NCBI GenBank assembly: GCA_001779195.1
Contig: MFJL01000041.1
Span: forward strand, 16,881 to 80,880
Direction: 5' to 3'
Length of the DNA: 64,000 bases
Source: Candidatus Gottesmanbacteria bacterium RIFCSPHIGHO2_02_FULL_39_11
GTDB taxonomy: Bacteria > Patescibacteriota > Microgenomatia > 2-02-FULL-39-11
Shown: in pieces, positions 25,439 to 56,440 of the stretch
Position numbering within the stretch: the stretch's first letter is position 1
Layout of the letters: every line of letters begins with the position of its first letter
The notes under the pieces: generated by a model
The model's database searches: none
What the model was told of the DNA's origin: nothing
What the model saw: the letters and a program-made list of their open reading frames with translations, nothing else
Translations under genes and position numbers: made by a program

Positions 25439-26173
25439 ATGAAAGGTGTAATTTTAGCTGGGGGACTTGCAACCCGACTTTATCCGCTTACTTACGCTAC
25501 AAACAAGCATCTTCTGCCAATTTTTGATCGGCCGATGATTTTTTATCCTATAAACACTCTGGTTAAAGCAGGAATTACGGAGGTTCTTATTGTGACAAGC
25601 GGTCCTCATGCGGGTCATTTTTTACGGGTCTTAAAAAACGGGAAAGAGTTAGGAGTTACGCACCTTGAGTATGCATATCAGGAAAGGGCAAACGGAGGTA
25701 TTGCCGATGCTCTAAAACTTGCTGAGGATTTTGCGGATAACGACCCCATCACCGTAATTTTAGGAGATAACACAACGGATGCGGATATAAAAAAAAGCGT
25801 TGATAATTTTAAAGACGGGGCCTTAATTTTCCTGAAAAAAATTGAGAATAAAAAAGAACTGTCACGCTTTGGAGTTCCCGAATTTGGAGAGCCGGATAAG
25901 TCAAAAGTAATTTCGCTTGAAGAAAAACCAAAAAATCCTAAGAGCAAATTTGCAGTGTGCGGGTTGTATATGTATGACAAACATGTTTTTGATCTCATAC
26001 GTAAATGCACGCCCTCAGCCCGGGATGAGCTTGAAATTACGGATGTAAATAATTTGTATATTAAAGAGGGCAAACTCTCCTGGGAAGAATTAAAAGGATT
26101 TTGGTCTGATACCGGTACATTTGATACGCTTTATGCAGCAAATAAATATTGGGCAAAGAAAGCGGGGATATGA
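25439..26173 (+). CDS. rmlA: glucose-1-phosphate thymidylyltransferase-like sugar nucleotidyltransferase (short form)
   Basis: MKGVILAGGLATRLYPLTYATNKHLLPI N-terminal signature. First gene of an rml-type block. Confidence 0.75.
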   Translation: MKGVILAGGLATRLYPLTYATNKHLLPIFDRPMIFYPINTLVKAGITEVLIVTSGPHAGHFLRVLKNGKELGVTHLEYAYQERANGGIADALKLAEDFADNDPITVILGDNTTDADIKKSVDNFKDGALIFLKKIENKKELSRFGVPEFGEPDKSKVISLEEKPKNPKSKFAVCGLYMYDKHVFDLIRKCTPSARDELEITDVNNLYIKEGKLSWEELKGFWSDTGTFDTLYAANKYWAKKAGI

Positions 26174-27162
26174 AACTTCTGGTTACAGGCGGTGCCGGTT
26201 TTATAGGAAGCAATTTTATCCTCTACTGGATTTCTCACTATCCGAATGATGCGATCGTTAACCTGGATAAATTGACGTACGCGGGAAATTTAGAAAACCT
26301 CAAAAGTATTGAAAAAAATCAAAATTATACGTTTATCCGGGGGGATATTTGTGACTGCGATGTTGTTGAAAAAGCGATGCAGGGAGTTGATACGATTGTC
26401 CATTTTGCGGCTGAGAGCCATGTGGACCGGTCAATTACAGAACCAAGTGATTTTATCAAAACAAATATCACCGGTACTTATACTCTTTTGGAATCTGCAT
26501 TAAAAAACCATGTTAAACGCTTCCACCATATCTCAACAGATGAAGTATTCGGATCTTTAGAATTAGATTCCCTGGAAAAATTTGATGAAAATACCCCTTA
26601 TGATCCGAGCTCTCCATACTCAGCATCAAAAGCATCATCTGATCATTTAGTAAGAGCGTATTTTAGAACGTATCAATTGCCTATTACCATTTCAAACTGC
26701 TCAAATAACTTTGGCCCTTTTCAGTATCCTGAAAAATTGATTCCCCTTACCATTACCAATTTGATGGAGGGTAAGAAAGTGCCGGTATACGGAGACGGGA
26801 AAAACGTAAGGGACTGGTTATATGTAGAGGATCACTGCCGGGCAATTGACCTTATTTTGCAAAAAGGAAAAGTCGGGGAGACATACACAATCGGAGGAAT
26901 GACACAGGATGTTTCAAATATCGAAATTGTCGGAAAAATAATAACCCTTATGGATGAGGATAAGGGTAAAATTGAATTTGTCACAGACAGAAAAGGACAT
27001 GACAGAAGGTATGCAGTAGACTGGAAAAAAATTGAGGGTGAACTGGGATGGAAACCCGTTTCCGATTTTGACACATGGCTTGCCAAAACTATTGATTGGT
27101 ACAGAAAAAACGAAAATTGGTGGCAACCACTTAAAAATCAAAAATGGATAAATCAATCTTGA
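26170..27162 (+). CDS. rmlB: dTDP-glucose 4,6-dehydratase
   Basis: ATGA overlap with the rmlA stop. MKLLVTGGAGFIGSNF. YSASKASSDHLVRAY (YxxxK). Confidence 0.8.
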   Translation: MKLLVTGGAGFIGSNFILYWISHYPNDAIVNLDKLTYAGNLENLKSIEKNQNYTFIRGDICDCDVVEKAMQGVDTIVHFAAESHVDRSITEPSDFIKTNITGTYTLLESALKNHVKRFHHISTDEVFGSLELDSLEKFDENTPYDPSSPYSASKASSDHLVRAYFRTYQLPITISNCSNNFGPFQYPEKLIPLTITNLMEGKKVPVYGDGKNVRDWLYVEDHCRAIDLILQKGKVGETYTIGGMTQDVSNIEIVGKIITLMDEDKGKIEFVTDRKGHDRRYAVDWKKIEGELGWKPVSDFDTWLAKTIDWYRKNENWWQPLKNQKWINQS

Positions 27163-28013
27163 CAACCGGTTTTAACGGGATGGTGGGGTCCCGTTTCTTG
27201 GAGCTATTTCCGGATTATACCGTTCTCAATCTCGGTAAATCGGATGGAGTTGATATCACCGATTATGAAAAAATCATTAACTATTTTGAAGAGTCAAAAG
27301 CTCCTACGGTTGTCCATATGGCCGGAAAAACGGATGTTGATTCCTGTGAGGATGATAAATTGTTTGGGGAGGGTGGCGAAGCATGGAGAGTAAATGTGGA
27401 AGGTACTCGAAATATTGTCAAAGCCTCTCAAAAAACAGGGAAACGTCTCATCTATATCTCAACAGACTTTGTTTTTAACGGAACAAAAGATTTTTATACA
27501 GAAGAAGACGTACCTGATCCGGTGAACTGGTACGGATACACAAAATACGAAGGAGAGCTCTCTGTCGCATCATCCGGAATTGGCTATTCTATTTTGCGCA
27601 TATCATATCCGTACCGGGCGTATTATCCGAAGAAAAAAGACTTTGTCAGAAGAATTTTGGAAAAAATGACGAACAAGGAAAAAATTTACGCTCTTTCTGA
27701 TCATATATACACTCCCACCTTTATTGACGATATCGCACAGGGTATCAACCTGTTTCTGGAAAAAAACATAGAGGGAACCTATCACTTAGTAGGAAGGGAA
27801 AGTTTATCGGTTATAGAGGGAATAACCACAATTGGGGGTGTGTTTGGTCTAAATCCACAGCTTGTTCCCATTACCCGGGAACAGTACTTTAAAGACCGGG
27901 CATACCGTCCATTTAAGTTGGGACTTAAAAGTGATAAAATAAGAAATCTTGATTTAAAGATGAATTCATTTAGCGAGGGGCTGGAAAAAGTTAAAAAACA
28001 GTTATCCATTTAA
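27144..28013 (+). CDS. rmlD: dTDP-4-dehydrorhamnose reductase-like NAD(P)-dependent oxidoreductase
   Basis: ILTTGFNGMVGSRF Rossmann motif, YGYTKYEGE (YxxxK). About 290 aa. Follows rmlB. Confidence 0.7.
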   Translation: MDKSILTTGFNGMVGSRFLELFPDYTVLNLGKSDGVDITDYEKIINYFEESKAPTVVHMAGKTDVDSCEDDKLFGEGGEAWRVNVEGTRNIVKASQKTGKRLIYISTDFVFNGTKDFYTEEDVPDPVNWYGYTKYEGELSVASSGIGYSILRISYPYRAYYPKKKDFVRRILEKMTNKEKIYALSDHIYTPTFIDDIAQGINLFLEKNIEGTYHLVGRESLSVIEGITTIGGVFGLNPQLVPITREQYFKDRAYRPFKLGLKSDKIRNLDLKMNSFSEGLEKVKKQLSI

Positions 28014-28018
28014 AATAT

Positions 28019-29314
28019 ATGAAAATAGGTTTTATCGGACACGGATACGTGGGACTGGTTACTGCTTCTGTATTTGCGGATTTAGGAAATACTGTTTATG
28101 TTGCCGGCAGAACAAAGGAAAAAATTGAGAAACTCAAAAAAGGAATAAGCCCTTTTTATGAGCCGGGACTGGATGAAATGGTTAAAAGAAACGTAAATGC
28201 CGGGCGTATTAAATTTACTCTGGATATTTCCGAAGTTGTAAAATCCTCTAAAATTATTTTTATTTGCGTCGGGACTCCTCCTAAGGAGACGGGTGAGGCT
28301 GATCTTTCATCCGTTTTTAAAGTAGCGGAGGATATCGGAAAGTCACTGGATCACTATGCCGTTATCGTAACCAAAAGTACGGTTCCGGTTGGCACAAATA
28401 GAAAAGTAGCTGAAATTTTAAGAAAAAATCTAAAGCCGGGAGTAAGTTTTGATATTGCCTCCTGTCCTGAATTTCTGCGGGAAGGAACCGCAATTTCAGA
28501 TACAACCAGTCCCGATAGAATTGTAATAGGCAGCGATTCTTCCAAAGCTCGGGATTTGCTTCTGGATCTTCACAAAGCGATTCCGGGGCATAGGATTACC
28601 TCGACAATTGAAACTGCAGAAATGATTAAATATGCATCCAACTCCCTTCTTGCAACCAAAATTTCGTTTGCCAATGCGATGTCATTTCTCTGTGATGCAG
28701 TTCATGCGGATGTGGAAGCAGTTCTGGATGGAATGGGACTGGATAAACGCTTAGGCCGCCAGTTTTTATATCCGGGAGTAGGATTTGGAGGAAGCTGTTT
28801 TCCTAAAGATGTCAAAGCACTTGTTGCCATTGCCCGAGAGCACGGGTACGACTTTGAGCTTTTACGTGCAGTTAACCACATCAATACCTATGCCAAGAAA
28901 AAATTTGTGGATACTATCATTGAAAAGCTTGGTGGAGTTAAAGGAAAAACGATTGGAATTTGGGGCCTTTCTTTTAAAGCCAACACGGATGATATGAGAG
29001 AAGCATCCAGTATCGACATTATAAACGGACTTTTGGAGAAGGGCGCTAAAATAAAAGCATTTGATCCAATTGCGACTGAAACGGCCAAAAAAGTGCTTCC
29101 CGAAAAAGTGCAGTTTTGTTCAAGTCCCACTGAGGCTGCCAAAGATGTAGATGGGCTTGCCCTTATCACCGAGTGGAACGAATTTAAACAAATCGATTTA
29201 TCTGAAGTAAAAAAAGTAATGAAGGGGAATTTTATTTTTGACGGACGAAACATATATGATCCGGAAAAAGTTAAAGCTCTTGGATTTAATTATAAAGGAA
29301 TTGGAAGGGAATAA
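28019..29314 (+). CDS. ugd: UDP-glucose 6-dehydrogenase family protein
   Basis: MKIGFIGHGYVGLVTA. Catalytic GFGGSCFPKDV. Confidence 0.85.
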   Translation: MKIGFIGHGYVGLVTASVFADLGNTVYVAGRTKEKIEKLKKGISPFYEPGLDEMVKRNVNAGRIKFTLDISEVVKSSKIIFICVGTPPKETGEADLSSVFKVAEDIGKSLDHYAVIVTKSTVPVGTNRKVAEILRKNLKPGVSFDIASCPEFLREGTAISDTTSPDRIVIGSDSSKARDLLLDLHKAIPGHRITSTIETAEMIKYASNSLLATKISFANAMSFLCDAVHADVEAVLDGMGLDKRLGRQFLYPGVGFGGSCFPKDVKALVAIAREHGYDFELLRAVNHINTYAKKKFVDTIIEKLGGVKGKTIGIWGLSFKANTDDMREASSIDIINGLLEKGAKIKAFDPIATETAKKVLPEKVQFCSSPTEAAKDVDGLALITEWNEFKQIDLSEVKKVMKGNFIFDGRNIYDPEKVKALGFNYKGIGRE

Positions 29315-29316
29315 TC

Positions 29317-30300
29317 ATGAAAGATGATCCTATTATGAAACAAAATAAAAAAATTGCACTTATTACCGGAATTACCGGATTTGCGGGAAGCCATCTGGCT
29401 GAACTTCTATTAAAAGAGGATGTAGAAGTGCACGGCATTCAGAGATGGAGAAGTAAAAGCGATAATATTGAAGCTATAAAAGATAAAATTCAGTTTCATG
29501 AAGCAGATTTGCTCGATGCTCATTCGCTCTATACGGTGATTGATGAGGTAAAACCGAACTATATCTTCCATCTGGCAGCCCAGTCCTATGTACAGTCTTC
29601 ATGGGCATCTCCTTCCAATACGCTGGAAGTTAACATTATCGGCACGGTCCATCTATTTGAAGCCGTTCGAAAAAGCGGACTTCCTCTTGCTATCCAAATT
29701 GCGTGCAGTAGCGAAGAATACGGAAAAGTGATGCCTGATGAAGTTCCCATTTCAGAGGGTAATCCTTTGCGTCCTCTTTCTCCCTACGCAGTTTCCAAAC
29801 TTGCAATGGATTATTTGGGCTATCAGTATTTTGAAAGCTACGGAATTAAAATAATCAGGACCCGGGGATTTAATCATACCGGTCCAAGGCGGGGCGATGT
29901 TTTTGCTGAATCGACATTTGCCAAACAGATTGCGGAAATTGAAAAAGGAAAGAAAGAGCCGGTTGTGTATGTAGGAAATCTGGATGCAAAGCGTGATTAT
30001 ACCGATGTTCGGGATATGGTGCGGGCATATTATTTATCGGTTGAAAAATGCAAACCCGGAGAAGTATATAATATTGCAACCGGAAAAGCGTGGAAAATTG
30101 GAGAAGTGCTAAATCTGCTTTTATCGAAAAGCCTCGTTAAAATAGCAATTAAAGAAGATCCGACACGTATGCGTCCCTCGGATGTTGAAGTGCTTGTGGG
30201 GGATTCAACCAAATTCAGAAACGCAACCGGTTGGAAGCCGGTTATTCCTTTTGAAAAAACAATGGAAGATCTTCTTAATTATTGGAGAGAGAAGGTATAA
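29317..30300 (+). CDS. NAD-dependent sugar-nucleotide dehydratase, GDP-mannose 4,6-dehydratase-like
   Basis: ALITGITGFAGSHLAE, YAVSKLAMDY, RGFNHTGPRRG (compare GMD FNHESPRRG). Confidence 0.6.
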   Translation: MKDDPIMKQNKKIALITGITGFAGSHLAELLLKEDVEVHGIQRWRSKSDNIEAIKDKIQFHEADLLDAHSLYTVIDEVKPNYIFHLAAQSYVQSSWASPSNTLEVNIIGTVHLFEAVRKSGLPLAIQIACSSEEYGKVMPDEVPISEGNPLRPLSPYAVSKLAMDYLGYQYFESYGIKIIRTRGFNHTGPRRGDVFAESTFAKQIAEIEKGKKEPVVYVGNLDAKRDYTDVRDMVRAYYLSVEKCKPGEVYNIATGKAWKIGEVLNLLLSKSLVKIAIKEDPTRMRPSDVEVLVGDSTKFRNATGWKPVIPFEKTMEDLLNYWREKV

Positions 30301-30413
30301 TAATTATCCAATTAACCAATTTCTAATTATCCAATTAACCAAAAAAACATTTGTTTAATTTTAAATTGGTTTATTGGGTAATTGGTATTTATTGGATAAT
30401 TGGATAATTATCA
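30301..30413. repeat. complex AT-rich palindrome: two direct TAATTATCCAATTAACCAA units facing inverted TTGGATAATTGGATAATTA units
   Basis: The direct 19-mer occurs at 30301 and 30325. Its reverse complement occurs as 3-4 degenerate copies at 30367-30413. It directly abuts the uxs start. Confidence 0.55.
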
Positions 30414-30414
30414 A

Positions 30415-31380
30415 ATGAATACCTTACCTATTTCTATCGTTACTGGAGGAGCTGGATTTATAGGCTCTAACTTGTGTTCAGAGCTTTTAAGGCGCGGGCA
30501 TTTTGTATACTGTGTCGATAATCTTATAACCGGAAGTGAGAAGAATATAAAACCGCTTCTTTTAAATCCCAACTTTGCGTTTTTAAAGCATGATGTTATA
30601 AATCCACTTCCGGACTCCTTTAAAAAAAAACTTAACCCCCCCTTATTTATTTTTCATTTAGCATCTCCTGCATCTCCTCCTAAATATAAAAAATGGTCTA
30701 TAGAAACCATGCGCGTCAATTCCGTAGGAACGTATAATATGCTCAATTTAGCAAGCGATTATCTGTACTCCCGGTTTTTGCTGGCTTCAACTTCTGAGGT
30801 TTACGGAAATCCGGAGGTGCATCCCCAGAAGGAAAACTACAACGGAAACGTAAATCCCCTTGGTACCAGAGCTTGTTACGATGAAAGCAAAAGATTTGCG
30901 GAAAGTCTGACCATGGAATTTTTAAGAAAGAAAAATACGGCAGTCCGCATTGTCAGAATTTTTAATACATACGGGCCGAACATGGAGAAAAGTGACGGGA
31001 GAGTAGTTTCAAATTTTATTAATCAGGCACTTTCCGGACAGAGTTTAACCCTATATGGGGACGGTTCTCAGACACGGTCTTTGTGCTATGTCTCTGATTT
31101 AGTAGAAGGAATTATTAAGATGATCCAGAAAGATAATATTAATGGGGAAGTAATTAATTTAGGAAATCCGAATGAAATGAAAGTCCGCGAAATTGCTGAA
31201 ATAATATTAAAACTTACCAAGTCAAATTCCCAAATCATTAAATCAGGTGAGAAAGATGCAGATGATCCAAAGAGGAGAAAACCTGATATTTCAAAAGCAA
31301 AAAAGATATTAGGATGGGAACCGCATGTCAGCGTGGAGGAAGGACTGCTAAAAACAATTGAGTATTTTAAGAATATATGA
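30415..31380 (+). CDS. UDP-glucuronate decarboxylase (UDP-xylose synthase)
   Basis: GGAGFIGSNLCSELL. LLASTSEVYGNPEVHPQKENYNGNVNPLGTRACYDESKRFAE is near-invariant in UXS/ArnA-decarboxylase enzymes. The track start 30400 is a TTG inside the palindrome; ATG is at 30415. Confidence 0.8.
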   Translation: MNTLPISIVTGGAGFIGSNLCSELLRRGHFVYCVDNLITGSEKNIKPLLLNPNFAFLKHDVINPLPDSFKKKLNPPLFIFHLASPASPPKYKKWSIETMRVNSVGTYNMLNLASDYLYSRFLLASTSEVYGNPEVHPQKENYNGNVNPLGTRACYDESKRFAESLTMEFLRKKNTAVRIVRIFNTYGPNMEKSDGRVVSNFINQALSGQSLTLYGDGSQTRSLCYVSDLVEGIIKMIQKDNINGEVINLGNPNEMKVREIAEIILKLTKSNSQIIKSGEKDADDPKRRKPDISKAKKILGWEPHVSVEEGLLKTIEYFKNI

Positions 31381-32537
31381 AAATAGTACACATCATTCCT
31401 ACATTTAACGAAAAAGAAAATATAGAACGCATGGTTACGGTTCTTACTGAAGTTGCCAAAAAAACTCCTCAAGATATCCATGAAATTTTATTTGTGGATG
31501 ACTATTCTCCGGACGGAAGCGGCGAGCTGGTGAAAAAACTGCAGAAAAAAAACAGCAAAGTTCATCTCATTGAGAAGAAAAAAGAAGGCTTGGGGAAAGC
31601 TCTTATCATGGGATACGATTATGCCATACGAAAACTTCACGCGGATATTGTAATTCCAAACGATGCTGATTTTCAGTGGGATCCGGAGGATATTCCTTCC
31701 CTTATTAAAAAATTGAATGAAGGATATGATGTAGTAGTTGCTTCCCGGCATGTTGCGGGAGGAAAAGTGGTCGGATGGAATTGGTTTAGGAATCTAAATC
31801 ATCAACTTTCAAATTCACTCCTTGCATGGTGGGTAGCAGGAGTAAAAGAGGTGCATGATCATGCGGGAAACTTCAAAGCAATCCGGGTAAAAGGAATTTT
31901 GGATAAGATTTCACTTCATAAAATGCAGAATGCCGGTTTTTCATTTCAGCTTCATATTCTATATGAGCTTTCAAAAACGGGAGCAAAATTTACGGAGGTA
32001 CCGGTAATTTTTCATGAAAGAAGATTCGGTAAATCAAAGATCGGATTTAACCGGTATTACGTACGGGATGTTTTTGAATATATAAAAAGCAGCATCAGCA
32101 TCCGGTATGATAGGTCTGCAAGTTTTTTTAAATACTGCATGGTCGGTGGAACCGGATTTTTGGTACAAACATTTATTTCCCATTTTTTGATTTTAACCGG
32201 TCTTCCTGCAGGAGCATCCGTTGCACTCGGGGCTGAAGGCTCTATTATTTCAAATTTTCTCTTTAATAATTTTTGGACGTTTAAACATGCCAAAATTGAA
32301 GAGGGAAAACTGTTTAAAAAATTTCTTCATTTTAACGGAGTCTCACTGGGTGCCATTCTTATACAATCGGTTGTAGTAACGGTGGGCACACATTTTTTTG
32401 GGACATCATCCTGGTTTATCTTTATGGTTTTGTCCATTGTACTTATTGTTATTCCATACAGTTACCTTATGTATAATTTTTTTATATGGAAGACAAAAAA
32501 AGTTCCGGATTTCAAAAAATACTTTTTGAATAATTGA
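31377..32537 (+). CDS. GT2 polyprenyl-phosphate sugar synthase fused to a C-terminal GtrA-like membrane domain
   Basis: IIPTFNEKENI ... VDDYSPDGS ... DADFQWDPED, then four TM helices (FFKYCMVGGTGFLVQ...). Confidence 0.75.
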   Translation: MKIVHIIPTFNEKENIERMVTVLTEVAKKTPQDIHEILFVDDYSPDGSGELVKKLQKKNSKVHLIEKKKEGLGKALIMGYDYAIRKLHADIVIPNDADFQWDPEDIPSLIKKLNEGYDVVVASRHVAGGKVVGWNWFRNLNHQLSNSLLAWWVAGVKEVHDHAGNFKAIRVKGILDKISLHKMQNAGFSFQLHILYELSKTGAKFTEVPVIFHERRFGKSKIGFNRYYVRDVFEYIKSSISIRYDRSASFFKYCMVGGTGFLVQTFISHFLILTGLPAGASVALGAEGSIISNFLFNNFWTFKHAKIEEGKLFKKFLHFNGVSLGAILIQSVVVTVGTHFFGTSSWFIFMVLSIVLIVIPYSYLMYNFFIWKTKKVPDFKKYFLNN

Positions 32538-34033: not shown

Positions 34034-34794
34034 GAAAAATAGAACTTAGTATTATTGTTCCCTGTTATAACGAGGAAAGAAATATCCGTCTGGGAGTTCT
34101 GGACCATATAGATGCCTATTTAAGAAAAGTAAAATATTCATATGAAGTTATTATTGTTGATGATGGATCAACAGATGAAACTCTTCACTTACTTACCGAT
34201 TTTATTTCCGAACATCCGAAATTTAAGGTTATTAAATCCCGTCACGGAGGAAAAGCACTGGCGGTTATTTCAGGAATGAATGAGGGAAAGGGAGATTATC
34301 TTCTTTTTTGCGATATGGATCAGGCTACCCCTCTTCCGGAATGGGAGAAACTGCATCCGTTTTTCGAGAAGAATTATGATGTAGTAATCGGCTCCCGAAG
34401 AGATATCCGGCAAGGGGCACCGCGGTTTCGCGTAATCATGGCAAAGGGTTTTATGATATTAAGAAACATTATTCTAGACTTAGGGATCACAGATACCCAG
34501 TGTGGTTTTAAGGCATTTAAGAGTGATGCTGCAAGAACTATACTCAATCGGCTGGTTTATTATAAAGGGGAGAGAAGCGTGAGGGGCTCAACGGTAACTG
34601 CTGGATTTGATGTAGAACTTCTTTTTATCGCAAAAGAGTTAGGGTATAAGATTAGTGAGGTACCGATTGACTGGCATTATCAGGAGACGAGACGCGTAAG
34701 TCCCGTTAAGGATTCTTTAGAGGGGTTTGCCGCTCTTCTTCGGATAAAATTTAACAGTCTGAGGGGGTATTATAGTAAAAAAACTCAGATCTAA
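34030..34794 (+). CDS. GT2 polyprenyl-phosphate glycosyltransferase (DPM1/GtrB-like)
   Basis: IIVPCYNEERNI, VDDGSTDET, FCDMDQATP. Confidence 0.8.
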   Translation: MRKIELSIIVPCYNEERNIRLGVLDHIDAYLRKVKYSYEVIIVDDGSTDETLHLLTDFISEHPKFKVIKSRHGGKALAVISGMNEGKGDYLLFCDMDQATPLPEWEKLHPFFEKNYDVVIGSRRDIRQGAPRFRVIMAKGFMILRNIILDLGITDTQCGFKAFKSDAARTILNRLVYYKGERSVRGSTVTAGFDVELLFIAKELGYKISEVPIDWHYQETRRVSPVKDSLEGFAALLRIKFNSLRGYYSKKTQI

Positions 34795-35993: not shown

Positions 35994-35995
35994 CT

Positions 35996-45911: not shown

Positions 45912-45946
45912 AACTGCTATGGATTCCCGCTTTGCGGGAATGACAA
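45903..45946. repeat. degenerate copy of the TTTGTC...TTCCCGC-hairpin-GGGAATGACAA element
   Basis: TTTGTCCATAACTGCTATGGATTCCCGCTTTGCGGGAATGACAA. Sits between the divergent tgt and ogt starts. Confidence 0.5.
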
Positions 45947-45951
45947 CACGT

Positions 45952-48071: not shown

Positions 48072-49529
48072 ATGGAAAAGGTGGACGTTTCAGAAATCAA
48101 AAGAAAGATATTAAGCGGAGTTTTTGCCCTCACCTCACGAACCCTTATTCTTCAAGTTGTCTCCGTTATATCCCAGACTCTCCTTACAGTCATCCTGACT
48201 CCTGCTGTTTTTGGAACGTATTATATTGCTACAGCATTTACTGACTTTTTTAACTATTTCGCAGACATCGGCCTTGCCGCAGCCCTTATTCAAAAAAAGG
48301 ATGAACCGACTTTAAAAGACCTCAGAACTGTTTTTACCGTTCAGCAGATGCTGATTACCGTTTTGGTTGTTTTAGGTCTTATTTTTTCAGATACAGTAGG
48401 AAATTTTTATCATTTGGATGCGGGAGGAATATTTTTAGTGAGAGCTCTTTTAATCTCATTTTTTCTTTCATCACTTAAAACCATTCCCTCAATTCTTCTG
48501 GAAAGAAGGCTTAATTTTAATCTACTTGTGGTTCCTCAACTTTTTGAAAGTATTGTGTTTAATATTTTAGTTATCCTGTTTGCCCTAAACGGAATGGGAG
48601 TATACAGTTTTGCGTGGGCCGCAATTGCCCGGGGAATTGTCGGAGTTGTTACCATATATATAATCAGTCCCTGGAGTATCGGGTTTGATTTGTCAATAAA
48701 AGAATTAAAAAAGCTTCTTTCATACGGAGTTCCGATTCAAGCAAATTCATTTTTGGCCCTTATTAAAGATAATTTGATGACATTATTCTTAGGAAGGGTA
48801 TTAAATCTCACTCAAGTGGGATACATCGGCTGGGCAAAAAAAACGTCAGAACTCGTTCTGAGGCTCTTTATGGACAATGTTATACGGGTCACCTTCCCGG
48901 CATATTCGCGCCTTCAAGAGCACCTGGAAATTCTGGCAAAAGCAGTTGAGAGGTCATTTTTTTTCCTTGCATTTTTTATTTTTCCTACATCGGCAGCCCT
49001 CATCCTCTTTATGCATCCTCTTATGGAAATTGTTCCCCGGTATTCCAAATGGGAGCCGGCGCTTTTATCCTTTTATCTTTTCAGCTTCGCGAGCCTTTGG
49101 GCAGCATTTTCAACAGCCGCTATTAATGCCCTTAATGCAATCGGAAAAATAAAATGGACACTTATACTTATGGTGTTATGGACGGCAATTACCTGGATAG
49201 GAATTCCAATACTTATTCATCTGGTTGGGTTTAACGGTGCTGCCATAACTGCTGCAATTATTGCAGCAACAGGGATACTTCCCATAATTCTTCTTAAAAG
49301 GAAAATTAATTATGATGCGCTTGGTCCCCTTCTAAAACCGTTAACTGCTACTTTTCTTATGATAGTTCTTATTTCGTTCTTTTTATCCCAGATTCATTCA
49401 GTTATATCATTTGGAACTTTGCTTGTAGTGTTTATTTTAGGGTATGCTTTAATTAGCTTTATCTGGATGAAGAGTGATATTAAACCCTATGTACTTCCTA
49501 TACTAAATAAAATAATTAAAAATAAATAA
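48072..49529 (+). CDS. wzx: polysaccharide/oligosaccharide flippase (MOP superfamily, Wzx-like)
   Basis: 485 aa with 12-14 TM helices. Wzx-like N-terminal block. Confidence 0.7.
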   Translation: MEKVDVSEIKRKILSGVFALTSRTLILQVVSVISQTLLTVILTPAVFGTYYIATAFTDFFNYFADIGLAAALIQKKDEPTLKDLRTVFTVQQMLITVLVVLGLIFSDTVGNFYHLDAGGIFLVRALLISFFLSSLKTIPSILLERRLNFNLLVVPQLFESIVFNILVILFALNGMGVYSFAWAAIARGIVGVVTIYIISPWSIGFDLSIKELKKLLSYGVPIQANSFLALIKDNLMTLFLGRVLNLTQVGYIGWAKKTSELVLRLFMDNVIRVTFPAYSRLQEHLEILAKAVERSFFFLAFFIFPTSAALILFMHPLMEIVPRYSKWEPALLSFYLFSFASLWAAFSTAAINALNAIGKIKWTLILMVLWTAITWIGIPILIHLVGFNGAAITAAIIAATGILPIILLKRKINYDALGPLLKPLTATFLMIVLISFFLSQIHSVISFGTLLVVFILGYALISFIWMKSDIKPYVLPILNKIIKNK

Positions 49530-49533
49530 TTTT

Positions 49534-51335: not shown

Positions 51336-52111
51336 AAAAAAATCTAAGCGCAGTTATTATTACGAGAAATGATAGCGATGATTTAGAAGACTGCATAAAA
51401 GAGTTATCCTTCGCCGATGAAATAATTGTTATTGACAATAACTCAACCGATGATACGGCAAAAATAGCCAAATCGTTAAAAGCTATGGTTTACAATGTTG
51501 GAGGACTTGATTTTTCGTATTTGCGAAATATCGGAAAAGAAAAATCGGAAGGGGAGTGGATTTTATATATTGATACGGATGAAAGGATCACAAAAGAGCT
51601 GAAAAATGAAATTGTATCATTCCTTAAAAAACCTGGCGATTATATGGCAGGGCTTTTTATCAGGAAAAATTTCTTTTTCGGAAGTCCCTGGAATCATTCG
51701 GACCGGATGACCAGACTCATGAAAAAAGAAGCCCTTATCGGATGGCACGGGCAGCTTCATGAAACTCCTCATGTAAGGGGCAATGTCTATACATTTAAAA
51801 ATCCGCTCTTACACTATACTCATGATAATTTAACCCAAATGGTTAGTAAGACAAATGAGTGGTCTGAAATTGAAGCACAACTTAGGTATCAGAATAATCA
51901 TCCTCATATCGTCGGGTGGCGCTTAATACGAGTTATGATTACGGCATTCTTTCAATCCTATATTCGGGAGGGAGGATGGAAGTGCAAAACGGTGGGGGTG
52001 GTAGAAAGTATTTATCAATCTTTTAGTATGTTTATTACTTATGCAAAATTATGGGAAAAACAAAATCGCGCGCTGATTGAAGAAAAAGACTATGATAAGC
52101 CGAACTCCTAA
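51332..52111 (+). CDS. GT2 family glycosyltransferase
   Basis: LSAVIITRNDSDDL, VIDNNSTDDT, YIDTDERI. Confidence 0.7.
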   Translation: MKKNLSAVIITRNDSDDLEDCIKELSFADEIIVIDNNSTDDTAKIAKSLKAMVYNVGGLDFSYLRNIGKEKSEGEWILYIDTDERITKELKNEIVSFLKKPGDYMAGLFIRKNFFFGSPWNHSDRMTRLMKKEALIGWHGQLHETPHVRGNVYTFKNPLLHYTHDNLTQMVSKTNEWSEIEAQLRYQNNHPHIVGWRLIRVMITAFFQSYIREGGWKCKTVGVVESIYQSFSMFITYAKLWEKQNRALIEEKDYDKPNS

Positions 52112-53177
52112 ACCTCTTAAAATCGGCATGTACAGTCCCTATCTTTCTATTTTAGGAGGTGGGGAACGTTACTTTCTCTCAATTGCTGAAATTTTATCCC
52201 AAAAAGAGAACGTCACCATTTTTTTTGATAAAAGTATTTCCCCGAAAGTTAAAGACACCCTCGGAATTAATCTGGACAAAGTATCTTTTGAATCAGAGAA
52301 AAAAATTTCTTCATCTTCTGCGATATCAAAATTTAAGCTTCTGTTAAAAATGGACGCATTTTTCTACATGACGGATGGGAGCGTTTTTTTGCCCGGTGCC
52401 AAACGGAATTTTCTTATTATCCAGTCTCCTGGTCATATGCCGGGGATTACCATTTCCCAAACGATTAAAACAGCCGGATGGAAAGTGTTGTGCTACTCGC
52501 AATTTATGAAAAGTATTCTTGAGAATCGTCTTAAAAAACCGGCAACCATACTCTCTCCGGGAATTGATACTCTGGTGTATCACACGACTACGAAAACGAA
52601 ACAGCCGATTATTCTCACAGTCGGCAGATTTTTTTCCTACCCCCATGACAAAAAACAAAAAATACTCATAGAAACTTTTAAAGAACACTCTCTTACTCTT
52701 TTTAAAGGATGGAGACTTATAGTTGCCGGAGGACTTACGGAAAAAAGCGGTGAGAAGGTTTTGGAAGATCTACAAGAATGTGCCTCCGGGTATCCCATCG
52801 ATTTTAAAGTAAATGTATCTTTTCTGGAGCTAATCAAAATTTATAAAAAGTCAACCATTTATTGGCATGCAGCCGGGTACGGAGAGGATCTGTACAGCCA
52901 TCCGGAGAGGGCAGAGCATTTTGGAATTACAACGCTTGAGGCGATGGCGGCAGGATGTGTGCCGGTTGTATATGACGGGGGTGGACAGAGGGATATCGTA
53001 GAAAATGGGGTAAACGGGTATCTCTGGCGAGAACCTCTTGATCTTGTCAAACACACGATGCATATTTTAGACCATGAGGAAACGTATCTAAGTCTTGTGG
53101 GAAACGCGTTTAAAAAAGCAGAAGAATATTCACAGCCGAATTTTTATGAAAAAGTTGTCAAGCTTCTTCACAGATAG
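52077..53177 (+). CDS. GT4 family glycosyltransferase. Start may be 52092 or 52128.
   Basis: EHFGITTLEAMAAGCVPVVYDGGGQRDIVENGVNGYLW. Confidence 0.75.
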   Translation: MKKKTMISRTPKPLKIGMYSPYLSILGGGERYFLSIAEILSQKENVTIFFDKSISPKVKDTLGINLDKVSFESEKKISSSSAISKFKLLLKMDAFFYMTDGSVFLPGAKRNFLIIQSPGHMPGITISQTIKTAGWKVLCYSQFMKSILENRLKKPATILSPGIDTLVYHTTTKTKQPIILTVGRFFSYPHDKKQKILIETFKEHSLTLFKGWRLIVAGGLTEKSGEKVLEDLQECASGYPIDFKVNVSFLELIKIYKKSTIYWHAAGYGEDLYSHPERAEHFGITTLEAMAAGCVPVVYDGGGQRDIVENGVNGYLWREPLDLVKHTMHILDHEETYLSLVGNAFKKAEEYSQPNFYEKVVKLLHR

Positions 53178-55389
53178 AAAGATATTTTTGTTTTTGGTGG
53201 GTTTAGGAGGAATATTTTTTTATCCATTTTTTATTTTCGGAAAAATTCCCATTCCCTCAGATGCCTTGGTGGGATTATATTATCCCTTCCGGGATACTCT
53301 AAATACCCGGTACCCGAACGGTTATCCGTATAAAAATCCGCTAATTACTGATCCTGTCCGTCAACAATATGTCTGGAGGGAGCTCTCAGTTGATGCGTTT
53401 AGAAAGGGGAAACTTCCCCTGTGGAATCCCTATTCATTCGCAGGTACTCCGCTTCTTGCCAATTTTCAGTCTGCTTCTTTTTATCCCTTAAATATATTAT
53501 TTTTTATTTTTTCATTTCCTTTTGCCTGGGGAATTCTAGTTTCCCTTCAGCCAACCCTCTCATTGATTTTTATGTATTTTTATCTTCGGGAGTTAAAAAT
53601 TACAAAAGCAGCATCCGTTGTCGGGAGTCTGGCTTTTTCATTTTCAGGCTTTTCCATTTCATGGCTTACGTGGAACACCGTGGGCCATACCGTTCTTTGG
53701 CTTCCCCTTATACTTCTCTCTGGTGAAAAAATTATTAAAAACACTTCCCTGAAATGGTCTCTTGTTCTTCTTTTTTCTCTGTGCTCATCTTTTTTTGCCG
53801 GTCATCTGCAGACGTTTTTCTATATAGGAGTTTTTTCACTGATTTACTTTGTTGCTAAATTAATTAATGGTATTCGTCATCCTGGATTTATTTACCCGGA
53901 AAATCCTTATGACGTACGGAAAAAATTAATAGTCTTTTTTATTTTTGTAATTCTTTTCACTGCCATCACCTCCGTCCAATGGATTCCGACTCTTGGTTTT
54001 ATTTCACAAAGTGCCAGAAATGCAGATCAGGCTAACTGGCAGAAGGAAGGATGGTTTGTGCCTCCTCAAAATCTGTTGCAGTTTTTTGCTCCTGATTTTT
54101 TCGGAAACCCAGCAACCGGTAATTATTACGGAGTCTGGAATTACGGTGAATTTATCGGATATATAGGAATGATTCCACTATTCTTTGCCCTGTATGCTGC
54201 TCTGAAATTAAAAGATAAAAAATCTATTTTCTTTGTATCCATTATTATGGTATCCATTGTTTTAATCACCGATAATCCTGTTTCTGAAATTCCTTACCGG
54301 TTAAATATCCCATATATTGGGACAAGTCAGCCCACACGGCTTATGTCTCTTATTGATTTTTCCCTCGCTGTTCTTGCCTCTTTAGGAGTAGACCAGCTCA
54401 GGAGCAACACAAAGCAGAAAAGATCTGTCTTATTCTCAATTGCAATAATACTAATGCTATTAGGAATTTGGACATTTTCCAGAAATCCGGTTGCCCGGAA
54501 TAATTTATATCTCTCCATTTTCCTGGGGCTTATTATCATTCTTACCACACAGGCATATCGTATACGGCCCTCCAAAATAGTATTGCCCGTATATTTACTG
54601 GTTACCGTTTTTGATCTTTTTCGTTTTGGGTGGAAGTTTACACCATTCACAAGTACCGATCTTTTGTATCCTCAAAGTTCCCTATTAAGTTATTTAGAGG
54701 ATAACTCACACAATTACCGGGTTATGGCAAATGACAGAAGGATTTTGCCTCCCAATGTATCCTCCCATTACAAAATTCAGGATGTTTCAGGATATGATCC
54801 TCTGTATTTACTCTCATACAATAAGTTTGTTTCTTCCTGGAACAGCAACAGCCTGAATTTGAAGCCAAGCGCATTTAACCGGATCGTAACTCCTCAAAAT
54901 TACGAGTCGCCCGTAAGCGATCTTTTAGGCATTAAATATCTTCTCAGTCTTACACCGGTTCAGTCTTTAAAATGGGAGTATGTTATGAGGGACGGGGAGA
55001 CATATCTTTATCAAAATAAAGATGTATTGCCCCGGGCGTATTTGGCACAAACCGTTTTCCAAAAAGAGACGGATCAGGATGTAATGAGAGAAGTTTTAAA
55101 TAATAAAAATTCAGATTCTGCTTTCTCAACCGAAAATATTACACTCGGGTCAAAATCTCTTACACCCAGTGAGTCAGCAGTAATTGAAAATTATGAAGAA
55201 AACGATATTCGTATTAAAGTTATATCAGGTGATACGCGAATGTTGGTATTAACTGATCCCTACTACAAAACGTGGAAAGCTTTCGTAGATGAAAAAGAAA
55301 CACAAATATTCAAAGTAAACTTTTTATTCAGAGGCGTTGTAATTCCATCAGGTGAACATATAATAGAATTTAAAAATTATTTGTTCTAG
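53149..55389 (+). CDS. YfhO-family GT-C membrane protein
   Basis: About 745 aa. N-terminal polytopic domain plus a large C-terminal extracytoplasmic domain, the YfhO architecture. The track start 53095 overlaps the preceding gene, so 53149 ATG is preferred. Confidence 0.55.
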   Translation, partial: KKLSSFFTDRKIFLFLVGLGGIFFYPFFIFGKIPIPSDALVGLYYPFRDTLNTRYPNGYPYKNPLITDPVRQQYVWRELSVDAFRKGKLPLWNPYSFAGTPLLANFQSASFYPLNILFFIFSFPFAWGILVSLQPTLSLIFMYFYLRELKITKAASVVGSLAFSFSGFSISWLTWNTVGHTVLWLPLILLSGEKIIKNTSLKWSLVLLFSLCSSFFAGHLQTFFYIGVFSLIYFVAKLINGIRHPGFIYPENPYDVRKKLIVFFIFVILFTAITSVQWIPTLGFISQSARNADQANWQKEGWFVPPQNLLQFFAPDFFGNPATGNYYGVWNYGEFIGYIGMIPLFFALYAALKLKDKKSIFFVSIIMVSIVLITDNPVSEIPYRLNIPYIGTSQPTRLMSLIDFSLAVLASLGVDQLRSNTKQKRSVLFSIAIILMLLGIWTFSRNPVARNNLYLSIFLGLIIILTTQAYRIRPSKIVLPVYLLVTVFDLFRFGWKFTPFTSTDLLYPQSSLLSYLEDNSHNYRVMANDRRILPPNVSSHYKIQDVSGYDPLYLLSYNKFVSSWNSNSLNLKPSAFNRIVTPQNYESPVSDLLGIKYLLSLTPVQSLKWEYVMRDGETYLYQNKDVLPRAYLAQTVFQKETDQDVMREVLNNKNSDSAFSTENITLGSKSLTPSESAVIENYEENDIRIKVISGDTRMLVLTDPYYKTWKAFVDEKETQIFKVNFLFRGVVIPSGEHIIEFKNYLF

Positions 55390-55423
55390 TTTTTTTGTTA
55401 TCTGTCAAATATTATTTGTTCAT

Positions 55424-56440
55424 ATGGATCTAAGTATCATTATCCCCAACTTTAACGGAAAAAAACTTTTAGAAAATAATCTTCCGAAAGTTTTAGAAGC
55501 AGGAAAAGATTGTGAAATAATTATTGTTGATGATGCATCAACAGATGGAAGCGTAGAATTTCTCAAAAAAGAATTTCCTCAAATAAAAGTTTTACAAACA
55601 TCTTATCATCCTGAACTTGTTTACTCGGAAAATTCGTTAGAATTGTTCCGAGATTCAGGATCTTCTTCAAACAAGGGCTTTTCTGCCTCCGTTAATCTTG
55701 GCGTTAGCCATGCCAAGTCTGACTTTGTTTTTCTCCTAAACAGTGACTGCTATCCTGAAAAAGGGAGTATTGAGAAAGTGATAAAGTTATTTGAAGATCG
55801 CAATTTATTTGCTGTGGGATTTGCACAGAAAAATTTAGAAGATGGAAAAACAGTCATTCGGGGAAGGGCCTTAGGGAAATTTGAAAAAGGATTTTTTGTT
55901 CATTCATACGGAAGTCCTGATAAAACAACCACTCAATGGGTGGGAGGTGGGGCGGGAGTTTTCAAAAAATCACTATGGGATCGTTTAGGAGGAATGGATG
56001 AAATTTATAATCCTTTTTATTGGGAGGATATAGATCTCTCATACCGTGCGTTAAAATCAGGGTATTCCATCCGGTTTGTTCCGGATGCATATGTTGTCCA
56101 CGAGCAAAGTAAAGGAACCATACGCAGCCATTATTCAGATTCCTATATTAAGTCCATTTCTTATAGAAATCAGATCTTATTTGTGTGGCTGAATATATCA
56201 GATCCCTACCTTTTATTAAGTCATTTCTTTTATTATCCCTATGAAGTCATTAAATCCTGGGTTAGGTTAGTGTGGTATGTCGTAAGTCGTAGGAAGAACA
56301 AAATCAGATCTTCTTCAGATCTTTCTTTTATAAAAGCTGATATCGCCTCAGAACTGAAATTCTTTTTGGCACTCGGAAAAAGATTTCAAAGAAAAAAAAT
56401 GTGGAAGAAAAAAGATAAAGAATGTTTTGTGAAGAACTAG
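55424..56440 (+). CDS. GT2 family glycosyltransferase
   Basis: LSIIIPNFNGKKLL, VDDASTDGS, YWEDIDLSYR. Confidence 0.75.
   Translation: MDLSIIIPNFNGKKLLENNLPKVLEAGKDCEIIIVDDASTDGSVEFLKKEFPQIKVLQTSYHPELVYSENSLELFRDSGSSSNKGFSASVNLGVSHAKSDFVFLLNSDCYPEKGSIEKVIKLFEDRNLFAVGFAQKNLEDGKTVIRGRALGKFEKGFFVHSYGSPDKTTTQWVGGGAGVFKKSLWDRLGGMDEIYNPFYWEDIDLSYRALKSGYSIRFVPDAYVVHEQSKGTIRSHYSDSYIKSISYRNQILFVWLNISDPYLLLSHFFYYPYEVIKSWVRLVWYVVSRRKNKIRSSSDLSFIKADIASELKFFLALGKRFQRKKMWKKKDKECFVKN

Follow-up and report, generated by a model that had tools for sequence, protein, structure and literature searches.

A conserved 31 kb locus of Candidatus Gottesmanbacteria combines four candidate polyprenyl-phosphate-sugar synthases with seven GT-C glycosyltransferases in a probable envelope-glycan pathway

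The 64-kb stretch of DNA analysed here (the window, to which all coordinates refer) derives from a small-genome groundwater bacterium of Candidatus Gottesmanbacteria, i.e. from the Microgenomates within the candidate phyla radiation (CPR, or Patescibacteria), and holds at 25439-56440 a cluster of glycan genes in which four family 2 glycosyltransferases (GT2s) that resemble polyprenyl-phosphate-sugar synthases are encoded together with seven polytopic glycosyltransferases of the GT-C type and a Wzx flippase. We favour, with moderate confidence, the reading that this is a lineage-conserved envelope-glycan locus that specifies a hybrid pathway of four stages, with a glycopolymer as the main acceptor. 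In the first stage cytoplasmic enzymes would supply dTDP-6-deoxyhexose, UDP-glucuronate (UDP-GlcA), UDP-xylose, probably a GDP-6-deoxyhexose and, by way of two short-chain dehydrogenases/reductases (SDRs), epimerised derivatives. In the second, the four GT2s, of the class of DPMS (dolichol-phosphate mannose synthase), GtrB and ArnC, would charge polyprenyl phosphate with single sugars on the inner side of the membrane, and in the third these lipid-phosphate-sugars would be flipped and serve the seven GT-Cs as donors for an acceptor at the outer face. In parallel, as a fourth stage, four ordinary GT2s, a GT4 and Wzx would presumably assemble and flip a lipid-linked oligosaccharide. The acceptor would be a glycopolymer, associated with the wall or anchored by a lipid, whose extension and decoration take place outside the membrane and which resembles mycobacterial lipomannan/lipoarabinomannan (LM/LAM) or arabinogalactan, or else the rhamnose polysaccharides of streptococci and lactococci, with surface proteins as a possible second acceptor for the PMT-like GT-C. 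Which sugars the lipids carry, how they are flipped, what accepts them and how the two halves of the locus are coupled we infer; the underlying logic of lipid-linked donors plus GT-C enzymes is well supported.

The source is borne out by exact protein matches: 35996 (genes and their products being named by their first coordinate) is also encoded on a 136 kb ENA metagenome contig (ERZ4903137) and in the Logan assembly of run SRR3989338, and 20480 equals A3D77_07010 of a Candidatus Gottesmanbacteria bacterium (RIFCSPHIGHO2_02_FULL) at NCBI. Profile scans with Pfam and NCBIfam on every open reading frame (ORF) of at least 100 residues in 25439-56440 confirmed the glycan cluster that an initial annotation, made from the sequence alone, had placed there. 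The block comprises 25 glycan genes, all on the plus strand, and 28.6 of its 31.0 kb are coding, with 11 overlapping junctions, six gaps of at most 10 nt and a largest gap inside a sub-cluster of 114 nt. The genes are thus co-directional and overlapping, as had been noted; unmentioned at the time was the interruption at 44706-46293 by a tRNA-guanine transglycosylase gene (tgt, minus strand) and an Ogt-like gene, which splits the block in two (Table 1). Sub-cluster A (25439-44387, 17 genes, plus strand) encodes, in order, RmlA-like, RmlB, RmlD-like, Ugd, an SDR of the Rmd/GMD family, UDP-xylose synthase (UXS), a GT2-GtrA-like fusion, a PMT_2 GT-C, a GT2, an MptA/B-like GT-C, a PMT/PMT_2 GT-C, two PTPS_related proteins, a GT2, two SDRs and a GT2, and sub-cluster B (46594-56440, eight genes, plus strand) a polytopic protein, Wzx, three GT2s, a GT4, YfhO and a GT2. 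The overlapping junctions include those between UXS and synthase, synthase and GT-C, and GT-C and synthase, and three runs can be read as tailoring enzyme(s) followed by a synthase and one or more GT-Cs, namely Ugd, Rmd-like and UXS leading to 31377 and on to 32534; 34030 leading to 34842, 35996, 37495 and 39112; and 40667, two SDRs and 43644 leading to 46594. The pairing of synthases with GT-Cs that had been proposed therefore stands as a donor-plus-GT-C logic but not as a one-to-one relation, with four synthases against seven GT-Cs. Families, folds, motifs, translational coupling, gene order and conservation are what the analysis shows. Scans for promoters and terminators over 43500-57500 gave numbers of sites like those expected by chance (41 where 42 were expected, and 15 where 11.5 were) and so leave the operon boundaries undefined. 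Horizontal acquisition of the block was considered and rejected: its GC content (0.33-0.41) is like that of its surroundings (0.35-0.43) and it is conserved across the lineage, so that there is no island signal.

All eight GT2 genes counted in the initial annotation lie within the span (31377, 34030, 40667, 43644, 49534, 50430, 51332 and 55424). Four of them (31377, 34030, 40667 and 43644) are synthase-like, where five had been claimed; the fifth is the gene at 1176-1898 on the minus strand, at the edge of the window. The closest relative of 31377 among solved structures is the DPMS of Pyrococcus furiosus (5MLZ, E=1.6e-37), with residues 1-356 aligned to 23-358, transmembrane (TM) domain included, followed by ArnC and GtrB. 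The protein has the GT-A domain, a DXD motif (DAD) and the GtrA-like TM domain (PF04138, 57.9 bits) that characterise DPMS-type enzymes, and the fusion of GT2 to GtrA that was pointed out earlier, recognised here as a GtrA_DPMS_TM domain, is by this alignment the known DPMS architecture. Mannose specificity cannot be assumed for it, since the adjacent genes are predicted to make UDP-GlcA and UDP-Xyl. As it is the single GtrA-like domain found, next to one MOP/Wzx flippase and no free-standing GtrA ORF, the "repeated GtrA" of the initial annotation falls.

The other three candidate synthases share with 31377 the invariant NE, D46, D98, SR, D161, E207 and R215 positions. In NCBIfam the top models for the four and for 1176(-) are PgfS, ArnC, AglJ, Dol-P-hexose (dolichyl-phosphate-hexose) transferase and PpgS. 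For 43644, PgfS, AglJ and ArnC score well over non-synthase GT2 families; 34030 has PgfS as its best model (84 bits) and, after GtrB, matches DPMS (7e-15) and chondroitin synthase (8e-14) in the PDB; and for 40667 AglJ, Dol-P-hexose transferase and PgfS reach about 38-43 bits, with non-synthase GT2 families not far off. With DPMS, GtrB or ArnC as their best solved relatives, the four were not found to lack the DPM1/GtrB signature. On these grounds we regard the assignment as synthase as secure for 31377, 43644 and 1176(-), as probable for 34030, and as plausible for 40667, the least secure of the four. The remaining GT2s (49534, 50430, 51332 and 55424) are, by their profile matches, ordinary cytoplasmic transferases and not synthase-like.

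Seven GT-C genes (32534, 34842, 35996, 37495, 39112, 46594 and 53095) were found in the span instead of eight, the eighth being the truncated gene 20-1186 at the window edge. Five exceed curated Pfam thresholds, a sixth (34842) is marginal and the seventh (46594) lacks profile support. The YfhO protein 53095, the tandem pair 37495/39112 (32% identical by pairwise blastp), the single GT4 and the single Wzx are all there as described, and every GT-C has an acidic (DE/DD-type) motif in an early loop, DE motifs having been noticed before. This motif follows TM1 in six of the seven, TM1 being preceded by an N-terminus with basic residues, and in 34842 (SxDxFNYxFDA) it comes after TM3. Orthologues of 33-57% overall identity preserve the motifs, the key acidic residues being unvarying; the motifs of 32534, 35996, 39112, 46594 and 53095 do not vary at all, and in 37495 and 34842 only the core acidic residues are fixed. 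For instance, FLGDEGRD in 32534 is invariant in seven orthologues (37-52% identity); PIFTDEAIY after TM1 of 35996 (TDE at 36-38) and D32 of 37495 (motif xDGxW) are invariant too; PIPxD of 53095 is kept in its orthologue on contig L007, and one of ten orthologues of 34842 diverges in the last residues.

Several of these proteins call for a comment on their family. The marginal MptB score (NF038066) of 34842 covers model positions 149-293 of 553 only, and for the same protein a precomputed PF26314 MptA_B_family match exists, with no match in our own Pfam scan. For 32534 and the window-edge GT-C there are weak matches to the Agl23 subfamily model. The N-terminal PMT domain and loop-1 Asp-Glu motif of 35996 are traits of Pmt/GT39 enzymes, and it is not filed as a Pmt because the C-terminal PMT_4TMC domain gave no Pfam match at E<=0.01. 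A GT2 partner of the CsbB/GtrB type, with C-terminal TM helices, was not found near YfhO 53095, the adjoining 55424 being TM-less, and the CsbB/YfhO pairing to which the locus had been compared is not supported.

Fold comparison was needed for the GT-C assignment because PDB sequence searches with 35996 and with the family profiles A1, A2 and A4 returned no meaningful match. Models of 46594 and 37495 were built with AlphaFold from 42-sequence alignments, with mean predicted local distance difference test (pLDDT) values of 92.9 and 88.6, and in Foldseek searches against the PDB both reached a probability of 1.0 only with GT-Cs (ArnT, STT3, PglB, AglB, DPY19, Pmt4, AftD and Emb), transporters ranking lower at 0.1-0.3; none of the GT-Cs was reassigned to a transporter. 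The top matches are ArnT, STT3, PglB, AglB, DPY19 and Pmt4 for 46594, and STT3, PglB and AglB for 37495; matches to AftD, AftA and AftB were also obtained with a modelled GT-C. The 46594 and PTPS_related families align with each other as remote homologues (hhalign E=1.4e-5) with their DD motifs in register, and the 46594 family and the PTPS_related pair represent well-populated new GT-C subfamilies, modelled with confidence but without a characterised member.

The STT3, PglB and AglB matches raise the oligosaccharyltransferase reading, which we rejected because WWDxG (searched as WWD or W[WY]DxG) occurs in none of the GT-C proteins. The same result bears on a broader alternative, namely that the locus is a conventional Wzx-dependent polysaccharide or en-bloc locus in which the GT-Cs would serve as polymerases, ligases or oligosaccharyltransferases on undecaprenyl-diphosphate-linked oligosaccharides and the small GT2s would be ordinary Leloir enzymes. 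The locus does contain rml genes and a GT4 besides Wzx and four ordinary GT2s, the 37495 model finds its nearest folds among oligosaccharyltransferases, and 34030 and 40667 are not cleanly apart from non-synthase GT2 families. Against this, the motif that defines STT3/PglB/AglB is lacking, 31377 is unambiguously DPMS-type, the alignment of 43644 with DPMS spans the whole catalytic part, and such enzymes need GT-C consumers. Moreover, Wzy_C, Bac_transf, Glycos_transf_4 and Wzz had no Pfam match in the scanned window ORFs of at least 100 residues, so that of the Wzx/Wzy-dependent O-antigen or capsule set only Wzx is present in the window, without Wzy/WaaL, an initiating phosphoglycosyltransferase or a chain-length regulator. 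We hold this alternative to be improbable. The view that the cluster is no simple O-antigen locus is upheld by these absences, with the reservation that sub-cluster B (Wzx, three GT2s, GT4, GT2) does have the look of a usual cytoplasmic, Wzx-dependent assembly line. A 71-residue ORF with two TM segments (44480-44695), which closely follows the last of the TM-less synthases, was considered as a DPM2/DPM3-like anchor or mini-flippase and dropped, being unconserved in all related loci.

The gene order recurs in at least ten other contigs (labelled L003, L004 and so on) at 31-85% protein identity, so that the arrangement is not due to chance. In tblastn searches with the window proteins, the genes of sub-cluster A recur in the same order in L003, L004 and L005 (37-85% identity), and L004 and L005 also keep tgt on the minus strand and the homologue of 46594. 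In L007 both sub-clusters are contiguous without tgt (35-66% identity), a small cupin gene taking its site: the order runs from 34842 to 43644, then cupin, 46594 homologue, methyltransferase, an uncharacterised protein with eight TM segments, Wzx, a secreted uncharacterised protein, three GT2s, GT4 and YfhO. The same order is found in L008, L010, L018, L019 and L021, L008 having an ABC transporter pair inserted after its 32534 homologue. Four metagenome contigs, one of them 1.15 Mb long, keep the order from rmlA to 34030, and three of these on to 34842. Outside the Gottesmanbacteria, L006 of the Levyibacteriota keeps the core, namely 34030-34842-35996, then 37495-39112, plus Wzx. The cross-lineage comparison that the initial annotation had recommended thus finds the cluster colinear in other Gottesmanbacteria and partly kept in Levyibacteriota.

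Frozen gene order in reduced genomes might also have left several unrelated glycosylation modules side by side. The tgt and ogt genes do interrupt the span, L008 carries its inserted ABC transporter and L006 only the central core, accessory genes (cupin/RmlC, methyltransferase and a secreted protein of about 540 residues) vary between genomes, and the colinearity reaches into housekeeping genes. However, translationally coupled junctions tie the sugar-nucleotide genes to synthases and the synthases to GT-Cs, A and B adjoin without tgt in L007, and the central core is shared with a different phylum-level lineage (L006), which makes a mere juxtaposition very improbable in our judgement.

Regarding the nucleotide-sugar genes, rmlA/B/D, ugd, UXS and two further SDRs are present as annotated, with the RmlA-like (rmlA model, 225.8 bits against an equivalog cutoff of 360.65) and RmlD-like (TIGR01214, 170 against 224) proteins under their cutoffs. 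Ugd passes the NDP-sugar dehydrogenase subfamily model (463.9 bits against 189.8). The presumed GMD-like dehydratase 29317 belongs to the GMD family, but its closest relative is Rmd, i.e. GDP-4-keto-6-deoxymannose reductase: it lies nearer to 2PK3, GDP-6-deoxy-D-lyxo-4-hexulose reductase (E=6e-87), than to GMDs (about 1e-50), and no other protein of the cluster is as strongly conserved, with 46-85% identity where a clear orthologue exists. No GMD or ManC was found in the window. The UXS gene directly follows those for Ugd and the Rmd-like SDR and overlaps, with its stop codon, the start of 31377, the DPMS-type synthase.

A full RmlABCD set for dTDP-L-rhamnose is not found in the window, where RmlB alone exceeds its cutoff and tblastn with the RmlC of a relative (L090) detects no rmlC anywhere in the 64 kb. 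In L089 (17533-18051), L090 (15532-16014) and L091 (20662-21117) rmlC (dTDP_sugar_isom) lies between rmlA and rmlB; at the corresponding junction of the window (26100-26200) it is cleanly missing and the two genes overlap as ATGA. The true start of RmlB is likely the ATG at 26170, overlapping the rmlA stop, as suggested by a gene call in L001 and by the junction sequence. The genome may therefore make another dTDP-6-deoxyhexose or keep rmlC elsewhere.

What the machinery acts on is the point at which the favoured envelope-glycan reading has to be weighed. An envelope glycopolymer or lipoglycan is preferred as acceptor because of the serial GT-Cs, the MptB-like member and the beta-sandwich domains, and seven GT-Cs on four donors resemble serial polymer building more than the modification of proteins with single sugars. 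Several points count against the reading. The scores of all synthase-like GT2s are far under NCBIfam equivalog cutoffs (for PgfS 60-84 bits against 500), and 34030 and 40667 score nearly equally against non-synthase families. Three of the four synthases (34030, 40667 and 43644) lack a TM segment, and neither a membrane partner nor a dedicated flippase was identified for these; TM-less synthases are known in DPM1, Ppm1 and PpgS. The polymer pathway is incomplete as seen, because the window lacks, next to the initiating enzyme, Wzy/WaaL and chain-length regulator, an LCP (LytR-CpsA-Psr) ligase and a lipid-anchor enzyme. The conserved order may in part reflect a general genome colinearity in the class, housekeeping neighbours being colinear too; every substrate specificity is deduced from family membership; 35996 matches the profile of protein O-mannosyltransferases; and conserved sortase-linked neighbours rich in Asn and Thr would suit a protein acceptor equally well.

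These last points lead to the possibility of a protein O-glycosylation machine like Pmt, Pgf or GtrB/PgtC2, whose GT-Cs would glycosylate the neighbouring Asn/Thr/Ser-rich proteins, perhaps pilins or S-layer proteins. 35996 matches PMT and its TDE loop motif does not vary, among NCBIfam models PgfS ranks first for 34030 and 43644 and second for 31377, and the streptococcal GtrB/PgtC2 and Pgf systems apply the same logic to Ser/Thr-rich extracytoplasmic regions (PMC11092751, PMC5856776). Secreted Asn/Thr-rich proteins and a sortase lie directly upstream of the cluster, and this upstream block (15238(-), the Asn/Thr-rich proteins, sortase and a CAP protein) is syntenic in three genomes (L089-L091, 31-61% identity); secreted Thr/Ser/Asn-rich ORFs precede the cluster in L018 and L019 as well. 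The initial annotation had drawn on these proteins; they are present, yet the link to the cluster is weak, because the housekeeping genes for TsaE, TsaD and PcsB are equally syntenic in L089-L091 and adjacency thus weighs little, and in L010 and L021 the Asn/Thr-rich proteins are not adjacent. Furthermore, 35996 has no PMT_4TMC match, one or two GT-Cs suffice in the known bacterial protein O-glycosylation systems of the kind, against seven here, and the module of Wzx and Leloir transferases, the MptB-like member and the beta-sandwich domain suit a glycan acceptor better. A locus mainly for protein glycosylation is a serious rival that we consider, on the whole, unlikely.

The envelope-glycan reading can also be taken further, to a major envelope heteroglycan built largely on the outer face from at least four different polyprenyl-monophosphate sugars by seven GT-Cs in series, a route that would have evolved independently of the one by which mycobacteria assemble LM/LAM and arabinan but would parallel it. 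This extension we regard as doubtful. If true, donors never described in bacteria are possible, for instance a polyprenyl-P-xylose or polyprenyl-P-uronic acid from the Ugd-UXS-DPMS module, and the whole would be specified by one operon-like locus in a symbiont genome of about 1.1-1.2 Mb (a size inferred from related contigs of 1.12 and 1.15 Mb) and might also coat the sortase-linked Asn/Thr-rich proteins.

Table 1. Features of the glycan locus and of its surroundings in the 64-kb window
Coordinates	Strand	Feature	Evidence
25439..26173	+	RmlA-like sugar-1-phosphate nucleotidylyltransferase, short form, 244 residues	Pfam NTP_transferase E=2.7e-53
26149..27162	+	dTDP-glucose 4,6-dehydratase RmlB	TIGR01181 492.7 bits, over 365.1 equivalog cutoff
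27144..28013	+	RmlD-like 4-ketoreductase	Pfam RmlD_sub_bind E=5e-52
28019..29314	+	UDP-glucose 6-dehydrogenase Ugd	all three UDPG_MGDP_dh domains
29317..30300	+	GDP-sugar 4,6-dehydratase/4-reductase family SDR, closest to Rmd	PDB 2PK3 E=6e-87
30400..31380	+	UDP-glucuronate decarboxylase (UXS)	human UXS1 (2B69, 4GLL) E=1.1e-97, full length
31377..32537	+	Polyprenyl-phosphate glycosyltransferase, P. furiosus DPMS architecture	Pfam Glycos_transf_2 and GtrA_DPMS_TM; DAD at 96-98
32534..34033	+	PMT_2/ArnT-like GT-C, about 11 TM	Pfam PMT_2 42.8 bits, cutoff 26.1; FLGDEGRD after TM1
34030..34794	+	TM-less GT2, probable polyprenyl-P-sugar synthase	DMD at 95-97; GtrB sll0501 E=2.5e-16
34842..35993	+	MptA/MptB-family GT-C, 383 residues, about 9 TM	NCBIfam MptB NF038066 40.8 bits, cutoff 40
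35996..37498	+	PMT/PMT_2-type GT-C	PMT_2 73.3 bits, cutoff 26.1; PMT (PF02366) 46.4, cutoff 22.7
37495..39108	+	PTPS_related GT-C, C-terminal beta-sandwich 420-498 and terminal TM helix	PTPS_related about 47 bits, cutoff 26.4
39112..40611	+	PTPS_related GT-C, tandem paralogue of 37495	PTPS_related about 47 bits, cutoff 26.4; HDDTQ invariant
40667..41410	+	TM-less GT2, plausible polyprenyl-P-sugar synthase	DVD at 95-97; DPMS E=2.9e-12, then ArnC
41417..42448	+	SDR nucleotide-sugar dehydratase/epimerase, RmlB/GalE-like	Pfam match; NCBIfam all under equivalog cutoffs
42526..43647	+	SDR nucleotide-sugar epimerase, GalE-like, with insertion	Pfam match in two stretches; NCBIfam
43644..44387	+	TM-less DPM1/Ppm1-type polyprenyl-P-sugar synthase (predicted)	5MLZ E=1.6e-23, 1-233 to 23-246; then ArnC, GtrB
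46594..48012	+	GT-C, Gottesmanbacteria-rich family	PMT_2 sub-threshold 16.7 bits; FFQDDW after TM1 invariant
48072..49529	+	Wzx/MOP-family flippase	Pfam Polysacc_synt_3 E=9e-51; NCBIfam MOP flippase matches
49534-50433, 50430-51335, 51332-52111	+	Three cytoplasmic GT2s	Pfam; best NCBIfam SunS-like, rhamnosyltransferase-like, SunS-like
52077..53177	+	GT4 glycosyltransferase	Pfam Glycos_transf_1 E=3.6e-22
53095..55389	+	YfhO-family GT-C, 764 residues	PF09586 YfhO 111.2 bits, cutoff 28.5
55424..56440	+	GT2 without TM, MftF/EpsD-like, not CsbB/GtrB-like	Pfam, NCBIfam, TM count
44706..45911	-	tRNA-guanine transglycosylase tgt (non-glycan)	Pfam TGT E=4e-118
45892..46293	+	Ogt/MGMT-like DNA-binding domain protein (non-glycan)	Pfam DNA_binding_1 E=1.8e-22
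15238..25068	mixed	Upstream neighbour block, candidate acceptors	composition, signal peptides, Pfam sortase and CAP
15238-16752	-	Polytopic membrane protein, 504 residues	no Pfam, NCBIfam or PDB match
17216, 19170, 20480		Secreted Asn/Thr-rich proteins	composition and signal peptides
17993		Membrane-anchored protein	
22902		Small protein, C-terminal TM anchor and basic tail	
23333		Sortase	Pfam
24190-25068		CAP/SCP-domain membrane protein, hydrophobic N- and C-terminal regions, directly upstream of rmlA	Pfam
20..3161		Window-edge module: truncated PMT_2 GT-C 20-1186 (+), synthase-like GT2 1176-1898 (-), MshA-like GT4 1950-3161 (+)	

Concerning the surroundings of the locus, the window-edge module is present as annotated, with its GT-C fragment, synthase-like GT2 (NCBIfam matches AglJ, PgfS and PpgS) and GT4 (MshA, 264 bits). 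It is adjoined at 3187-6464 by genes for a histidine phosphatase, a PAP2 phosphatase and a Mur-ligase-family protein; the PAP2 phosphatase is weakly similar to undecaprenyl-diphosphatases, and a role in carrier-lipid recycling is possible. In the upstream block, the stretch 17216-23971 (about 5400-13600 in L089, L090 and L091) resembles a sortase-dependent surface-protein or pilus operon. The family of the 788-residue protein 20480 is conserved over its full length at 40-47% identity across Gottesmanbacteria, and DUF11 (PF01345) or dockerin domains occur in relatives that are more distant. The CAP protein holds the same position in L010, L072, L089, L090 and L091. The motif PxDSDLGWHLKYGEYFF after TM1 of 15238(-) is invariant in four orthologues. 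We did not adopt this protein as an eighth GT-C, its hhalign match to the PTPS_related family being weak (probability 22-33%, E=4.5e-4 over 300 columns) and matches in the three databases being absent; it may nevertheless be a further GT-C-like enzyme. A 112-residue ORF at 14887-15225 matches the N-terminal part of TsaD/TsaB (PF00814) and may encode a miniaturised TsaB-like protein, with genes for 106-108 residues at the same place in L090 and L091, beside TsaE and Sua5. The 3' flank (56847-62862) encodes DUF488, a RhuM-family protein, the methylase HsdM of a type I restriction-modification system and an AAA_14/DUF4143 ATPase, and has a defence/mobile look. No tRNA genes were found in the window.

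With regard to the related contigs, genes missing from the window occur at 11961-16265 in L007 and at 4904-6608 and 17162-18730 in L008. Among such accessory genes are those for the protein with eight TM segments and for a secreted protein of 520-560 residues, which directly follows Wzx in L007 and L008 (35% identity between the two). L003 (CAYIFB010000008.1) was deposited as "uncultured Gammaproteobacteria bacterium" and carries the cluster in the Gottesmanbacteria order; since its proteins are 40-85% identical, the contig has probably been mis-binned or mislabelled.

Much of bacterial diversity belongs to the CPR, which live in attachment to host cells and whose surface chemistry is almost unstudied; a paper on Saccharibacteria calls the glycosylation processes of that group "unexplored" (PMC11623550). 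Our literature searches returned nothing on GT-C clusters in Gottesmanbacteria or Microgenomates and no account of the present arrangement. Every component belongs to a known superfamily, and the novelty lies in the configuration, in which a single conserved locus of 31 kb in a reduced CPR genome unites four synthases and seven GT-Cs, some from subfamilies without a characterised member, with a Wzx/Leloir module. Roughly 2.5% of the genome, taken as about 1.2 Mb, is given over to this locus, which is colinear across species whose proteins are only 35-70% identical; this implies a role of the glycan in envelope integrity or in contact with the host. Four candidate synthases, seven GT-Cs with defined motifs and a set of candidate acceptor proteins provide testable handles, and the locus is thereby a well-founded lead into the surface glycobiology of the CPR, though no new principle.

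Among known systems, the closest in logic are the three-component systems for extracytoplasmic glycosylation, such as GtrA/GtrB/GtrC, CsbB/GtcA/YfhO, ArnC/ArnEF/ArnT and the pentofuranose systems with GT136 enzymes (PMC11127046, PMC5836110, PMC7389260). There too a GT2 polyprenyl-phosphate-sugar synthase feeds a GT-C that acts outside the membrane, and nucleotide-sugar epimerases or decarboxylases are encoded beside the synthase; the run of Ugd, UXS, synthase and GT-C mirrors ArnA-ArnC-ArnT. Of the GtrABC-type traits, the present locus shows the GT2 synthase class (31377 and 43644, with 34030 and 40667 less discriminated) and GT-Cs with an acidic early-loop motif. It differs in combining four synthases and seven GT-Cs where those systems form a three-gene module, in having only a fused GtrA-like domain and one MOP flippase and no free-standing GtrA or small multidrug resistance (SMR) flippase, in the TM-less nature of three synthases, and in being a conserved core feature instead of a strain-variable or phage-borne decoration module.

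Lipoglycan and arabinogalactan assembly in mycobacteria and corynebacteria proceeds through Ppm1, PpgS/Rv3779, PimE, MptA/B/C, Emb and AftA-D, with GT-Cs acting serially on polyprenyl-P-monosaccharides. Shared with this system are the many GT-Cs in series, TM-less synthases of the Ppm1 and PpgS type, the MptB-like 34842 and the structural match of a modelled GT-C to AftD, AftA and AftB. In contrast to the dispersed mycobacterial genes, those described here form one operon-like block; a UbiA/DprE pathway for decaprenyl-P-arabinose is not apparent, xylose, uronic acid and 6-deoxyhexose are the more likely sugars, and the host is a small-genome CPR bacterium. The architecture of 31377 and the AglJ and Dol-P-hexose transferase matches likewise recall P. 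furiosus DPMS and the haloarchaeal Agl system of N-glycosylation (AglJ, AglD, AglS, Agl23; Dol-P-sugars), unlike which the locus has no oligosaccharyltransferase of the AglB/STT3 type, given that no GT-C has WWDxG; all these matches are under curated cutoffs.

The Pgf system of Streptococcus mutans (PgfS, PgfM1, PgfE, PgfM2) and streptococcal GtrB/PgtC2 O-glycosylate proteins, their substrates being Ser/Thr-rich extracytoplasmic regions of surface or sortase-anchored proteins (PMC5856776, PMC11092751). In these systems too an epimerase works with a synthase of the GtrB type and with a pair of polytopic, GT-C-like membrane proteins; unlike in Pgf, the synthases here score far under the PgfS equivalog cutoff, GT-Cs and synthases are far more numerous, and the acceptor is a candidate only. 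Finally, the large loci for rhamnose-rich cell-wall polysaccharides of streptococci and lactococci, which are monoderms, hold rml genes, Leloir GT2s and GT4s, a flippase and side-chain modules of GtrB plus GT-C (PMC10821137, PMC11754754). The window has neither RgpA-F nor an ABC-transporter rhamnan core, neither rmlC nor an LCP ligase, but it combines the same gene classes in a large locus, one in which the GT-Cs dominate.

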